Positions 1-32,262 of a DNA stretch of 64,000 nucleotides are shown in pieces. Location: assembly GCF_003334255.1 (NCBI RefSeq), contig NZ_QOWU01000008.1. One strand, given 5' to 3'. The position numbers and the translations under genes are program-made. The DNA is from Escherichia coli. GTDB lineage: Bacteria; Pseudomonadota; Gammaproteobacteria; Enterobacterales; Enterobacteriaceae. Every line of letters starts with the position of its first letter. The first letter of the stretch is position 1. The notes below the pieces were generated by a model that ran no database searches, was not told the origin of the DNA, and saw only the letters and a list, made by a program, of their open reading frames with translations.

Positions 1-106
1 AGCGCGGTGGTCCCACCTGACCCCATGCCGAACTCAGAAGTGAAACGCCGTAGCGCCGATGGTAGTGTGGGGTCTCCCCATGCGAGAGTAGGGAACTGCC
101 AGGCAT
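1..106 (+). rRNA. rrfE: 5S ribosomal RNA, 3' portion (window starts inside the gene)
   Basis: Sequence matches the conserved enterobacterial 5S rRNA 3' region ending GGGAACTGCCAGGCAT and is followed by a hairpin/T-run terminator; operon identity (rrnE) is inferred from downstream gene order only. Confidence 0.85.
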
Positions 107-5380: not shown

Positions 5381-5618
5381 CTGTAGGCCGGATAAGGCGT
5401 TCACGCCGCATCCGGCAATCGGTGCACGATGCCTGATGCGACGCTTGCGCGTCTTATCATGCCTACAGCCGTTGCCGAACGTAGGCCGGATAAGGCATTT
5501 ACGCCGCATCCGGCAATCGGTGCACGATGCCTGATGCGACGCTTGCGCGTCTTATCATGCCTACAACCGTTGCCGAACGTAGGCTGGATAAGGCGTTTAC
5601 GCCGCATCCGGCAATTCT
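5381..5618. repeat. REP/BIME array: about 2.4 tandem copies of a 98-bp unit built from REP palindromes
   Basis: TAGGCCGGATAAGGCG..CGCCGCATCCGGCA recurs at 5384, 5482 and 5580; classic REP consensus in the aceA-aceK spacer. Confidence 0.85.
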
Positions 5619-20299: not shown

Positions 20300-20520
20300 C
20301 CATTTTCAGCCTTGGCACAAGGGAAGAGCGGAAGACGGGTGGGCGCAGAGCGATACTTCGCTACTATTTTCACCCAGAAGTGCTCCACCACTTGCGAAAC
20401 GCCCGACTGCGAACGCTTCTGGTGACAACCCAGGGGATTCAGCCCCTGTAGCCGATGATGAACGTGGCCAGCCGTTCAATCACCTCGGCGATGCACCCCC
20501 TCAGGTGTTATCACAGGACT
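20300..20520 (-). promoter_or_regulatory. lysC 5' leader with lysine riboswitch (L-box); boundaries approximate
   Basis: About 320 bp GC-rich non-coding leader between lysC ATG (20278) and pgi promoter; E. coli lysC is known to carry a lysine riboswitch; structure not folded here. Confidence 0.55.
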
Positions 20521-20802
20521 GGCTCCTCCAACACCGTTACTTGGGCAACGCGCCTCTTCTGGCCTGCGCTAGCGCAGGTAGTACATTTATAAATAAAGGG
20601 TGAGCGGGGCGGTTGTCAACGATGGGGTCATGCGGATTTTTCATCCACTCCTGGCGGTCAGTAGTTCAGCTAATAAATGCTTCACTGCGCTAAGGGTTTA
20701 CACTCAACATTACGCTAACGGCACTAAAACCATCACATTTTTCTGTGACTGGCGCTACAATCTTCCAAAGTCACAATTCTCAAAATCAGAAGAGTATTGC
20801 TA

Positions 20803-22464: not shown

Positions 22465-22553
22465 TGTAGGCCGGATAAGGCGTTCACGCCGCATCCGGCA
22501 ACCGATGCCTGATGCGACGCGGTCGCGTCTTATCAGGCCTACAGGTCGATGCC
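22465..22553. repeat. REP palindromic elements downstream of pgi
   Basis: ATGTAGGCCGGATAAGGCGTTCACGCCGCATCCGGCA ... GCGTCTTATCAGGCCTACAGG. Confidence 0.8.
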
Positions 22554-22615
22554 GATATGTACATCGTATTCGGCAATTAATACATAGCACGATTGATTAA
22601 ATAACCTTAATAACA

Positions 22616-22642
22616 ATGCCGACGTTATGTCGGCATTTTTTT
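22616..22642 (+). terminator. Rho-independent terminator (pgi transcript)
   Basis: Hairpin ATGCCGAC-GTTA-GTCGGCAT followed by T7. Confidence 0.8.
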
Positions 22643-22950
22643 ATCAGATAAATCCCCTTGTCTGTGATTTAACGGAAATCATACCATGAGGTTAATCCTA
22701 AAATAGATTTTTAATCGTTGTTTATTTCGGAAAATACGCAGATTAATTGCTTTTGTTTTTATTTTAAGTTTATGATTTTTATTGTTATTTAAATATAAGT
22801 TGAAACTTATATTTGATATTCATTCCAATTATCCTAAAACGCCATCGCTAATTCCCCGCGCCGTAATTCGCATGCTTTAGTTGTGTATACTCGATCCCGC
22901 CCGAAATGTTTTTGGGTAAATCTCCATTCATTCAATGAAGGGAAATTGTT

Positions 22951-24679: not shown

Positions 24680-26775
24680 TGAAAAAAAGACATCTGCTTA
24701 GCTTACTGGCGCTGGGCATTAGCACAGCTTGCTACGGCGAAACATATCCTGCGCCCATTGGTCCGTCGCAGTCGGATTTCGGTGGCGTAGGATTATTACA
24801 AACGCCCACCGCGCGTATGGCACGGGAAGGGGAGTTGAGTCTGAACTATCGCGATAACGATCAGTACCGTTATTACTCAGCTTCAGTGCAACTCTTCCCG
24901 TGGCTGGAAACAACGCTGCGCTACACCGACGTGCGCACCCGGCAGTACAGCAGCGTCGAAGCGTTCTCTGGCGATCAAACGTATAAAGATAAAGCCTTCG
25001 ATCTCAAACTGCGTTTGTGGGAAGAGAGTTACTGGCTGCCGCAAGTGGCGGTTGGTGCGCGGGATATCGGCGGTACGGGGCTGTTTGATGCGGAATATCT
25101 TGTTGCCAGCAAAGCCTGGGGGCCGTTCGATTTTACGCTCGGCCTGGGCTGGGGATATTTGGGCACCAGCGGTAATGTGAAAAATCCGCTCTGTTCAGCC
25201 AGTGATAAATATTGCTATCGCGATAACAGCTACAAACAGGCGGGATCTATCGACGGTAGCCAGATGTTCCACGGTCCTGCCTCACTGTTTGGCGGCGTGG
25301 AATACCAGACGCCCTGGCAACCGCTGCGCCTGAAACTGGAGTATGAAGGCAATAATTATCAGCAGGATTTTGCCGGGAAGCTGGAGCAAAAAAGTAAGTT
25401 TAACGTCGGTGCGATTTATCGCGTTACCGATTGGGCCGACGTTAACCTTAGCTATGAACGTGGCAACACCTTTATGTTTGGCGTTACGTTGCGCACCAAC
25501 TTTAACGATCTGCGCCCGTCTTACAACGATAACGCCCGCCCGCAATATCAACCGCAGCCGCAGGATGCCATTTTGCAGTATTCGGTGGTGGCGAATCAGT
25601 TAACGCTGTTGAAATACAATGCCGGACTTGCCGATCCACAGATCCAGGCGAAAGGCGATACGCTGTATGTTACCGGCGAGCAGGTGAAATATCGTGATTC
25701 GCGCGAAGGGATCATCCGTGCGAATCGGATCGTGATGAACGATCTGCCGGATGGGATCAAAACGATCCGCATTACGGAAAATCGCCTTAACATGCCGCAG
25801 GTGACGACGGAAACCGATGTCGCCAGCCTGAAAAATCATCTCGCCGGAGAGCCGTTGGGCCACGAAACGACGCTGGCGCAAAAACGCGTCGAGCCAGTGG
25901 TTCCGCAGTCCACCGAGCAGGGCTGGTATATCGACAAATCACGCTTTGATTTCCATATCGATCCGGTGCTGAACCAGTCGGTCGGTGGCCCGGAAAACTT
26001 TTACATGTATCAGCTGGGCGTGATGGGAACGGCAGATTTGTGGCTGACGGACCATCTGCTGACCACCGGCAGCCTGTTTGCAAATCTTGCCAACAACTAC
26101 GACAAGTTTAACTACACTAATCCTCCGCAGGACTCGCACTTACCGCGCGTGCGTACCCATGTGCGCGAGTATGTGCAGAACGATGTCTATGTGAATAACC
26201 TGCAAGCCAACTACTTCCAGCATCTGGGCAACGGCTTCTACGGTCAGGTCTACGGTGGTTATCTCGAAACCATGTTTGGCGGTGCGGGGGCAGAAGTGTT
26301 GTATCGCCCGCTGGACAGCAACTGGGCGTTTGGTCTGGATGCCAACTACGTTAAACAGCGCGACTGGCGTAGTGCAAAAGATATGATGAAATTCACCGAC
26401 TACAGCGTGAAAACCGGACATCTGACCGCCTACTGGACGCCATCTTTCGCTCAGGATGTGTTAGTTAAAGCCAGCGTCGGGCAGTATCTGGCAGGGGATA
26501 AAGGCGGCACGCTGGAGATCGCCAAACGCTTTGATAGCGGCGTGGTGGTGGGTGGCTATGCCACGATCACTAATGTTTCGAAAGAGGAGTACGGCGAAGG
26601 GGACTTCACCAAAGGCGTGTATGTCTCGGTACCGTTGGATCTCTTCTCGTCTGGCCCGACACGCAGCCGTGCGGCGATTGGCTGGACGCCGCTGACGCGT
26701 GACGGTGGTCAGCAACTTGGGCGTAAGTTCCAGTTGTATGACATGACCAGCGACCGTAGCGTCAATTTCCGCTAA
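24679..26775 (+). CDS. yjbH: YjbH, putative outer-membrane beta-barrel lipoprotein of the yjbEFGH locus
   Basis: 698 aa ORF with signal/lipobox ([11 protein letters not shown]), ends in aromatic residue; ATG overlaps yjbG stop (TAATG). Confidence 0.9.
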
Positions 26776-26785
26776 GTCATGGGAA

Positions 26786-26816
26786 AGGTGCCAGTTTTCG
26801 CACTCACTGGCACCTT
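26786..26816. terminator. Putative bidirectional hairpin between yjbH (+) and yjbT (-)
   Basis: Inverted repeat AGGTGCCAGT..ACTGGCACCT in the 46 bp between convergent stops. Confidence 0.55.
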
Positions 26817-26821
26817 CATTC

Positions 26822-27100
26822 TTAATGGCCTGTCGAGCCATCAGGAACGCAGTTCACTCCCGGTTTGCGATCTGGTGTGTAAAGGCGAAAACATTCTGTC
26901 TTCCTGTCCGTCGATATCGGTTGCAGGTCTGGTTGCCTGAGCGACTGGGCCATCATTGGGCTGGAGACATTGCTTTGCGGTAGGTCGGCTTTATCAGCAG
27001 TACCGAGCGGACCAGCATAAGCAGGAAGAACAGAGACTGATAACATCAAAGCAGCAAAATAAGGCTTCATTTTTACCACCTTTATCAGGTTACGTTTCAT
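26822..27100 (-). CDS. yjbT: Small putative periplasmic protein YjbT
   Basis: 92 aa ORF with internal signal-peptide-like stretch (MKPYFAALMLSVSVLPAYA); true start may be the internal Met. Confidence 0.6.
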   Translation of the reverse strand: MKRNLIKVVKMKPYFAALMLSVSVLPAYAGPLGTADKADLPQSNVSSPMMAQSLRQPDLQPISTDRKTECFRLYTPDRKPGVNCVPDGSTGH

Positions 27101-27199
27101 TTGTTCCAGAGGAACATTGTCGATTTTTCGCGCATTGCTGGTGGCTGGGAATCACCTGAATGGGTGATTTTTGAATTACCGGCTTTGGTGCGGTTTGTC

Positions 27200-27240
27200 T
27201 TGCCGGATGCGCCGCCAGGCGCGGCTTATCCGGCCTACGG
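27200..27240. repeat. REP-like palindromic element
   Basis: GCCGGATGCGCCGCCAGGCGCGGCTTATCCGGCCTAC. Confidence 0.6.
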
Positions 27241-27369
27241 GTAGGTATATCCGGCTTTGGTGGAGGCGCGCTCCAAATCCAGGTTGAACAAAACATACAC
27301 AAAAAATATAGATCTCCGTCACATTTTTGCGTTATACAGGAAGCTCGCCACTGTGAAGGAGGTACTGCT

Positions 27370-27780
27370 ATGACGTCACTCTCTCGTCCGCGCGTGGAGT
27401 TTATCTCCACCATTTTGCAGACCGTACTCAATCTTGGCCTGCTGTGCCTCGGCCTGATTTTGGTTGTCTTCCTCGGCAAAGAAACGGTGCATCTGGCTGA
27501 TGTGCTGTTCGCGCCAGAACAAACCAGCAAATATGAGCTGGTAGAAGGACTGGTGGTTTACTTTCTCTATTTCGAATTTATCGCGCTGATTGTGAAGTAC
27601 TTTCAGTCCGGTTTTCACTTCCCGCTACGTTACTTTGTCTATATTGGGATCACCGCCATTGTGCGCTTGATCATCGTCGATCATAAATCGCCACTGGATG
27701 TGTTGATCTACTCGGCTGCGATCCTGTTACTGGTGATCACCCTGTGGCTGTGTAATTCGAAACGGCTGAAGCGGGAGTAA
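27370..27780 (+). CDS. psiE: Phosphate-starvation-inducible protein PsiE (inner membrane)
   Basis: 136 aa hydrophobic ORF starting [29 protein letters not shown], recognised as PsiE. Confidence 0.9.
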
Positions 27781-27823: not shown

Positions 27824-29299
27824 TTACAGCGTAGCAGTTTGTTGTGTTTTCTTCGTTTCCGGTTCCCAGAGCGCTTCCAGCTCCTCAAGGGTTTTACCTT
27901 TGGTTTCCGGGACAAATTTCCACATAAACAGTGCTGCCAGAACGCCCATACAACCGTAAATCCAGTAGGAGAAACCGTTGTGGAAATGGGCCACCAGCCA
28001 GGAGTTTTTGTCCATCATCGGGAAGGTCCAGGAGACGAAGTAGTTCGCCAGCCACTGGGCCGCCACCGCGATTGCCAGCGCTTTACCACGAATAGCATTC
28101 GGGAAGATTTCCGACAGCAGTACCCAGCATACCGGACCCCAGGACATGGCAAAGGCGGCAACATAGAACAGCATCGACAGTAGCGCCACAATACCCGGTG
28201 CCTGAGTGTAAAACGCGGTACCGAGGCTAAACATACCGATTGCCATTCCGAGTGCGCCGATAATTTGCAGTGGCTTACGACCAAATTTATCCACCGTCAT
28301 AATTGCCAGAACGGTGAAGGTGAGGTTGATAACTCCGACAATAATGGTCTGCAACAGCGCGATATCCGTGCTGGCCCCCAGCGTTTTGAACACTTCCGGC
28401 GCGTAGTACAGCACCACATTGATGCCGACAAATTGCTGGAAGATGGAGAGCATTACGCCGATTACAATCACGCCCACGCCAAACATCAGCAGACGACCAC
28501 CGGTTTTGCGGCCATGATCCAGGGAGTGTTTAATTTCCTGTACTGCCTGAGTTGCAAGCGTGTTGCCCATAATTTTGCGCAGGATACCTTCCGCCTGTTC
28601 TTGCTTGCCGCGCGACATCAGCCAGCGAGGACTTTCTGGCACGGTATACAGCAGCATTAAGAACAGCAGTGCAGGGATACATTCCGAGGCAAACATATAA
28701 CGCCAGCCGTCAGTATTCAGCCAGCTGGCATCACCGGAACGGGCAATAAAATAGTTTACGCAGTAAACTAAAAGTTGCCCGAAAATAATCGCAAACTGGT
28801 TAAAAGAGACCAGTTTCCCGCGAATATGAGCTGGAGCCAGTTCCGCAATATACATTGGCGAGAGCATTGAGGCTAAACCAACGCCAATACCGCCAATAAT
28901 GCGATAAATAACAAATTCCGGGACATAACCTGCCAGATAAACAGGCACAGTGTTGTCCGGGTTTATAGAGGTAAAACCAAGTTCTGGCCAGGCAGAACCT
29001 ACACCAGAAATAAAAAACAGGACAGCAGCAATCTTAAGTGAATCACGACGACCGAAGCGGTTACTGCAATAACCACCGAGGGCACCGCCGATGATGCAAC
29101 CAATCAGAGCGCTGGCCACGCAAAACCCTAACAGGGAGTTGGCAGCGGATTCACTTAAGTTTTGTGGAGCAACAAAGACGGTATTGAGTGACTCAACAGT
29201 ACCGGAAATAACGGCGGTGTCGTAGCCAAATAATAAACCACCTAATGTAGCGACTAAGGTAATCGAAAATATATAACTGGAATTATACTGGGTATTCAT
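27824..29299 (-). CDS. xylE: D-xylose:H+ symporter (MFS sugar porter)
   Basis: 491 aa ORF with MFS sugar-transporter signatures (GRR..., PESPRWL); recognised as XylE. Confidence 0.95.
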   Translation of the reverse strand: MNTQYNSSYIFSITLVATLGGLLFGYDTAVISGTVESLNTVFVAPQNLSESAANSLLGFCVASALIGCIIGGALGGYCSNRFGRRDSLKIAAVLFFISGVGSAWPELGFTSINPDNTVPVYLAGYVPEFVIYRIIGGIGVGLASMLSPMYIAELAPAHIRGKLVSFNQFAIIFGQLLVYCVNYFIARSGDASWLNTDGWRYMFASECIPALLFLMLLYTVPESPRWLMSRGKQEQAEGILRKIMGNTLATQAVQEIKHSLDHGRKTGGRLLMFGVGVIVIGVMLSIFQQFVGINVVLYYAPEVFKTLGASTDIALLQTIIVGVINLTFTVLAIMTVDKFGRKPLQIIGALGMAIGMFSLGTAFYTQAPGIVALLSMLFYVAAFAMSWGPVCWVLLSEIFPNAIRGKALAIAVAAQWLANYFVSWTFPMMDKNSWLVAHFHNGFSYWIYGCMGVLAALFMWKFVPETKGKTLEELEALWEPETKKTQQTATL

Positions 29300-32120: not shown

Positions 32121-32140
32121 GGGGTTCTTCCTCATTCCAG

Positions 32141-32262
32141 GACGGATAAGGCTTTCACGCCTTATCCGACAACAACTGCCTGATGCGACGCTGACGCGTC
32201 TTATCAGGCCTACATACGTTTCGGTTTTGTAGGCCGGACAAGGCGTTCACGCCGCATCCGGC
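32141..32262. repeat. REP/BIME palindromic elements in the malE-malF spacer
   Basis: GGACGGATAAGGCTTTCACGCCTTATCCGAC ... GTAGGCCGGACAAGGCGTTCACGCCGCATCCGGCA. Confidence 0.8.

Follow-up and report, generated by a model that had tools for sequence, protein, structure and literature searches.

The precursor of the STa enterotoxin is a 72-aa protein in which a 19-aa Sec signal and a poorly conserved pro-region precede a short Cys-containing C-terminal peptide that is oxidized in the periplasm. The oxidation of periplasmic cysteines by DsbA is likewise established knowledge. YjbT of Escherichia coli, which we read as a precursor of 82 aa, appears similar in size (72 vs. 82 aa) and in its layout of signal, variable region, and Cys-containing C terminus; this likeness serves as a lead only. 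There is no sequence homology to STa, as a Pfam scan with YjbT returned only PF17089, YjbT would have one disulfide compared with the three in STa, and it is without a conserved processing site. Unlike STa, yjbT belongs to the chromosomal core of E. coli and is not carried on plasmids or phages. A second point of comparison is the generic class of small, soluble periplasmic proteins of the Enterobacteriaceae that are exported through Sec and processed by signal peptidase I. YjbT resembles these substrates in its basic n-region, hydrophobic core of ~14 residues, and A-x-A type site, and its cysteines are likewise positioned for a periplasmic disulfide. In contrast to these substrates, export of YjbT is predicted only, and the protein has no recognizable fold or domain beyond a short Cys loop.

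The gene lies in a 64-kb stretch of E. coli chromosomal DNA of the K-12 type (hereafter, the window), where the gene order is yjbF-yjbG-yjbH (+), yjbT (-), psiE (+, 27370-27780), xylE (-), and malG (-). As annotated, the ORF occupies 26822-27100 on the minus strand and encodes 92 aa plus a stop codon. Both the frame and the name given to it in a first-pass annotation of this DNA were correct: the ORF is ATG-initiated, 92 aa long, and reads Met11 and then KPYFAALMLSVSVLPAYA as quoted there, and it corresponds to RefSeq CDS WP_001295279.1, UniProt YJBT_ECOLI, and Pfam PF17089 (YjbT), the last with a full-length match in hmmscan (query 1-92 vs. model 1-92 of 92; i-Evalue 1.5e-65). In agreement with this, the 751-nt yjbT region was 100% identical to that of K-12 MG1655, which carries the same CDS (b4620) between yjbH and psiE. 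Hence, the feature is an already known and annotated gene; it is genuinely protein-coding and monocistronic. The same annotation had placed yjbT among small secreted proteins that are often under-annotated, which does not apply here since RefSeq already carries the label "periplasmic protein", the UniRef name being YJBT_ECOLI, "Uncharacterized protein YjbT". It had also called both neighbors convergent, and this holds for yjbH (+, ending at 26775), which converges on yjbT, but not for psiE (+, starting at 27370), which is divergent. The literature on yjbT is close to nil: of 10 full-text matches, two concerned E. coli, and both mentioned the gene incidentally. For one text-mined link, "YjbT - inhibits E. 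coli" (PMC12746109), a lineage-marker artefact is the most plausible reading. What the present analysis adds to the known gene is a revised start codon, a conserved Cys-loop module, a cassette-like organization, and an upstream palindrome; these would not surprise a specialist and overturn no existing knowledge, and their value is modest and practical.

RefSeq, UniProt, and Pfam each model YjbT as 92 residues from Met1, whereas family-wide comparison favored an 82-residue precursor that starts at Met11 (CDS including the stop codon, 26822-27070, minus strand). All eight homologs outside Escherichia, from Kluyvera, Pseudocitrobacter, Buttiauxella, and Shimwellia, begin at the residue equivalent to Met11, with N termini of the form MK/MT/MR-x-Y-F/W, and in an exhaustive HMM search profile position 11 aligned to residue 1 of the homologs. 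The Shine-Dalgarno (SD) sequence AAGGTGG (27076-27082, minus strand) stands 5 nt upstream of the Met11 ATG and is conserved across genera; in cross-genus DNA alignments, AAGGTGGT-AAAA-ATG was essentially invariant. The calculated duplex with the 16S rRNA 3' end amounted to -9.3 kcal/mol at Met11 vs. -3.3 kcal/mol at Met1. Translation of yjbT therefore most probably starts at Met11 (27070), served by this SD, and the ten codons upstream (MKRNLIKVVK; 27071-27100, minus strand), which are specific to Escherichia, are probably 5' UTR. In other genera the frame of this extension is not maintained. A 1-nt indel immediately before the SD breaks it in Kluyvera, and three loci (L014, L015, and L016) have in-frame stops ahead of the start codon, at a distance of 7 codons in Shimwellia, 8 in Pseudocitrobacter (L014), and 9 in Buttiauxella sp. 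At the Met1 position, no in-frame ATG was found outside Escherichia, only a GTG within the SD itself, and the sole upstream in-frame ATG in these genera lies 21 codons upstream in contig L017.

Initiation mainly at Met1 (27100), yielding a 92-aa precursor with a long and highly basic n-region (MKRNLIKVVKMK), or the use of both starts, is in our view unlikely but credible. The Met1 ATG and the open frame following it are kept in five Escherichia species (E. coli, E. albertii, E. whittamii, and two further species), the 5' ends assembled from RNA-seq (27107-27122) are located upstream of Met1, and all three databases model the longer protein. Given the kept ATG and the upstream 5' ends, some initiation at Met1 is possible. 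However, no homolog outside Escherichia has the extension, the Kluyvera indel shifts the frame, and the Met1 ATG combines poor anti-SD pairing with a position abutting a conserved hairpin. Conservation of the ATG within Escherichia itself carries little weight, since conservation at the DNA level extends over the entire upstream block. We did not find yjbT in the searchable supplements of ribosome-profiling, N-terminomics, and transcription start site papers. Once the signal peptide is cleaved, the choice of start would make no difference to the mature protein. A start that is probably ten codons downstream of the annotated one nonetheless matters for fusions, tagging, and signal-peptide prediction.

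From Met11, the precursor begins with a predicted Sec signal peptide of 19 codons, MKPYFAALMLSVSVLPAYA (27014-27070, minus strand), cleaved after AYA. Numbered from Met11, the n-region is MK, the h-region PYFAALMLSVSVLP, and the c-region AYA followed by G, with the small-x-small motif at residues 17 to 19. The best 11-residue Kyte-Doolittle mean of the h-region was 2.41, and the hydrophobic core extends over ~14 residues and is bounded by Pro. This arrangement corresponds to what is expected of a Sec/signal peptidase I substrate, namely a charged n-region, an h-region of ~7-15 residues, uncharged, small side chains at both -3 and -1, and a residue other than Pro at +1. The same layout of basic n-region, core, and small-x-small motif was found in all eight homologs, with Kyte-Doolittle values for the core of 2.0-2.7, or 1.3 in Pseudocitrobacter. 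The predicted cleavage motifs, AYA|G in E. coli and VYA|I, VFA|I, AHA|Q, AFS|Q, CYS|Q, CYA|Q, and SYA|S in the homologs, aligned to a common position to within two residues, with both Kluyvera sites displaced two residues further along. Consistent with the suggestion in the first-pass annotation that a signal-like segment begins at an internal Met, which the homolog starts, the conserved SD and ATG, and the broken upstream frame elsewhere now support, cleavage after AYA would release a product of 63 aa (6.8 kDa, pI ~6.8, 8 prolines) with the N terminus GPLGTADK, close to the roughly 60 aa proposed there. We infer from these sequence features that yjbT almost certainly encodes a small exported, periplasmic protein.

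Since cleavage at AYA is a prediction made from the sequence, we also weighed whether the hydrophobic segment stays uncleaved and anchors YjbT in the inner membrane, or whether YjbT is a lipoprotein, as might be suggested by three homologs that carry a Cys close to where this segment ends. We judge both very improbable. The core is only ~14 residues long, bounded by Pro, and followed by the conserved small-x-small motif, which argues against a signal-anchor. The lipobox [LVI][ASTVI][GAS]C is absent; the first Cys of E. coli YjbT is residue 70, and the three homologs with a Cys at this place have Pro or Thr at -1. The Tat motif (S/T-R-R-x-F-L-K) is absent too, neither candidate N terminus containing RR. 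No record of YjbT was found in the proteomic, N-terminomic, and initiation-profiling literature searched.

Selection on the mature protein was concentrated at its C terminus. The last 25 codons (26825-26899, minus strand) encode a conserved module, TECFRLYTPDRKPGVNCVPDGSTGH, that contains two invariant cysteines, C70 and C84 in the 92-aa numbering. Comparing E. coli with a Kluyvera-like homolog (L004) across this module, 18.0 of 18.7 synonymous sites were changed, i.e., saturation, vs. 0 of 56.3 nonsynonymous sites; the comparison with Kluyvera georgiana (L012) gave 14 synonymous changes and 1 nonsynonymous change. The module consensus is T-x-C-[FY]-x8-P-G-[VIL]-N-C-[VI]-P-D, and the residues invariant across eight diverse members were M1, Y4, and T-x-C...P-G-x-N-C-x-P-D. 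A trailing GSTGH follows the module in some members only. Upstream of the module, a Pro/Ser/Gln-rich middle region of 38 codons (26900-27013, minus strand) evolves fast, with pN ~0.50 against the Kluyvera and Pseudocitrobacter homologs; about 50% of it is replaced between E. coli and the Kluyvera-like homolog. Thus, relative to the database description of the YjbT family, strong constraint is confined to the last 25 residues, and conservation acts at the protein level in the yjbT frame. Conservation among relatives was one of the checks proposed for this ORF in the first-pass annotation, and the frame is indeed kept in other genera under purifying selection.

These counts effectively refute a reading of the ORF as a nonfunctional or spurious young orphan frame, which we give next to no chance. 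Such a frame might be suspected from the narrow taxonomic range of YjbT (13-14 clusters among 1.8-5.8 billion proteins), the lack of any known domain or structure match, and the rare occurrence in E. coli and Shigella of frameshifted alleles, plus a single deletion allele. However, synonymous sites in the module are saturated across genera while its amino acids are unchanged, the layout of start, SD, and signal peptide is conserved, 99.8% of complete E. coli genomes carry an intact copy, and transcription was seen under all conditions tested.

AlphaFold2 gave no confident structure, including for the middle region, when run on the precursor with the eight-sequence family alignment (pLDDT 56), and for the 30-residue module alone it returned a pLDDT of 62 with no secondary structure; because these models are not confident, any loop or hairpin geometry of the module is conjecture. 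A profile search of the PDB gave no match at E<=10, NCBIfam and PADLOC gave no match to YjbT, and a profile built from the C-terminal 44 columns recovered only YjbT members, the module being found in no other family. The 38-residue, proline-rich middle stretch of the mature protein is probably disordered. As two invariant cysteines lie 14 residues apart in a protein predicted to be exported, a periplasmic disulfide closing a 15-residue loop is the natural reading.

Taken together, we assign a probability of roughly 0.75 to the following picture. An 82-aa precursor started at Met11 would be exported by Sec and cut by signal peptidase I after AYA, giving a soluble 63-aa periplasmic protein, in which C70 and C84 (92-aa numbering) would be oxidized by DsbA to form the 15-residue disulfide-closed loop. 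The conserved Cys loop would then be the functional, presumably partner-binding module, tethered to a disordered and freely evolving spacer. The experimentally relevant part of YjbT is narrowed to the 25-residue Cys-loop module.

The three-part layout of a 19-aa signal, a 38-aa region with pN ~0.5, and a 25-aa module with dN ~0 would also suit a pre-pro-peptide, in which the variable middle is a pro-segment and a released, disulfide-closed 25-mer serves as ligand, inhibitor, or signal, either within the periplasm or extracellularly. A semiconserved D-[RH]-[KRV] directly ahead of the module in six of eight members could be taken as a trace of processing. In the other two members, however, the corresponding residues are ELN or QYN, such that there is no conserved processing site, and no gene for a dedicated protease, exporter, or receptor was linked to yjbT in any context. 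Nor was there homology to peptide-toxin or bacteriocin families, be it in Pfam (PF17089 only), the PDB, NCBIfam, PADLOC, or with the module profile. We therefore regard release of the module as distinctly unlikely and favor a mature protein that retains its spacer.

In a published directional RNA-seq study (PMC3734233), b4620 formed a transcription unit of its own in each of the seven conditions, and its assembled 5' ends map to MG1655 4238085-4238100; Met11 and Met1 stand at 4238048 and 4238078 of MG1655 (U00096.2). Using an offset fixed by the intergenic coordinates in the same paper, these correspond to 27107-27122 in the window. At the other end of the gene, a perfect 11-bp inverted repeat (AAGGTGCCAGT / ACTGGCACCTT; 26785-26816) between the convergent stop codons of yjbH and yjbT is likely a terminator hairpin shared by the two genes. 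RNA folding of 73 nt running from the yjbT stop codon and spanning this hairpin gave -29.7 kcal/mol, a GC-rich hairpin followed the yjbT stop codon in 10 of 10 loci examined, and a compensatory G-C to A-T change was seen in the Kluyvera hairpin. A strict terminator scan of 26700-27450 called no terminator, missing this hairpin because its T-run is short, and a scan for consensus sigma-70 promoters across the same interval found none.

Two conserved elements mark the region upstream of the start codon. The first is a small hairpin, TGTTCC-TCT-GGAACA (27102-27116, minus strand), in the leader or promoter region next to the RNA-seq 5' ends, which occurs once in the window in the form TGTTCC-N3-GGAACA. 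GTTCC...GGAAC was kept in seven of nine aligned loci; the stem was in shifted register in L017 (GGTTC/GAACC) and L016 (TGTTC/GAACA) and unrecognizable in L015. Given its position, this hairpin is a possible 5'-terminal stem of the transcript. The second is a palindrome, AATCACC-N6-GGTGATT (27150-27169), ~100 nt upstream of the start codon and the only perfect copy in the window, whose left half, ATCACCC, was nearly invariant across genera and genomic contexts. A structured regulatory RNA was unsupported because the consensus fold of the leader showed covariation in only 2 of 13 pairs, its energy term coming mostly from invariant bases, and the z-score of the single-sequence fold was -1.4. With covariation this low, we favor interpreting the palindrome as a candidate operator, a site for protein binding that may overlap the -35 region. 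Readings of the upstream elements as sigma-E (GGAAC...TCTGA), sigma-54, sigma-32, CRP, FNR, or NtrC sites were each rejected by eye on spacing or half-site order, and no regulator or sigma-factor consensus among those considered fitted the palindrome or the hairpin. In Rfam, the yjbT upstream region gave only subthreshold matches to REP-derived naRNA4. A joint scenario, in which a released 25-mer acts on an envelope or host target and yjbT is controlled by a regulator at AATCACC-N6-GGTGATT, is distinctly unlikely.

About 110 nt of upstream DNA, which include the palindrome and the small hairpin, and the downstream hairpin accompany yjbT in differing genomic contexts; yjbT is hence a self-contained, monocistronic cassette that carries a promoter region and a terminator hairpin of its own, and its conserved palindrome offers a handle for tracing a yjbT regulator. 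YjbT homologs formed 13-14 clusters in a word-indexed search of 5.8 billion proteins and an exhaustive HMM search of 1.84 billion representatives. Besides E. coli and Shigella variants, these came from K. georgiana, Pseudocitrobacter, Buttiauxella izardii, Buttiauxella sp., Shimwellia pseudoproteus, and a few metagenomic contigs. The context psiE<>yjbT><yjbH was common to Escherichia, K. georgiana, Pseudocitrobacter, and contig L017, and yjbT was found among unrelated genes in B. izardii, Buttiauxella sp., Shimwellia, and contig L004, making four or more different contexts. No conserved partner gene was found across the contexts examined, and the adjacency of yjbT to the yjbEFGH polysaccharide operon is therefore probably not functional. 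In K. georgiana, an extra gene encoding a hexapeptide-repeat acetyltransferase sits between yjbT and yjbH (L012 3389-3844; L007 528-983).

Within E. coli, yjbT was present in 5,415 of 5,426 complete genomes. Phages gave no match to yjbT, and a plasmid location was discarded since the six "plasmid" matches were to records of 0.65-4.9 Mb, i.e., chromosomes or chromosome-sized replicons. We also discarded the idea that yjbT DNA is unusually conserved within Escherichia, its identity in E. albertii being 95.6% vs. 93.2% for psiE. Comparison with strain EC42405 delimited a presence/absence block among E. coli strains (26776-27283) comprising yjbT, the terminator, the upstream block, and a REP element. 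EC42405 (L003 1576-1697) has in its place a 36-nt hairpin sequence that separates the yjbH stop from the psiE promoter, which constitutes an empty-site allele. Another strain (GPEC1031, H22) retains only query positions 127-279 of yjbT, and rare frameshifted or degraded alleles in E. coli and Shigella flexneri (P0006, P0010-P0014) formed clusters of 1-4 members vs. 473 members for the intact form. Nearby genes vary as well: xylE (27824-29299 in the window) is absent from ST131 strain MB1159 (L002) and from EC42405 (L003), where malG directly follows psiE, and the annotation of MB1159 treats yjbH as a pseudogene that contains an internal stop.

The REP-type palindrome (GCCGGATGCGCCGC / GCGGCTTATCCGGC; 27202-27234, within 27176-27283) lies between the divergent promoters of yjbT and psiE, an unusual place for such an element, and Escherichia species as well as E. 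coli strains differ in how many copies they have and in how long the element is. On the strand facing the yjbT upstream region, RefSeq (PGAP) annotates a 47-aa, TTG-initiated "hypothetical protein", WP_000487766.1 (27101-27244, plus strand), that looks spurious because its ORF runs through the yjbT promoter block and the REP element. A forward-strand intergenic transcript of 61 nt, at 27117-27177 in the window, was reported from this interval (PMC3734233). Across the whole window, Rfam matches at the gathering threshold comprised a lysine riboswitch (20370-20566, minus strand), the sRNA STnc430 (22605-22754, minus strand), a 5S rRNA cut at the window start (1-104, plus strand), and four REP-derived naRNA4 matches (5386-5463, 5484-5561, 22469-22539, and 32140-32210).
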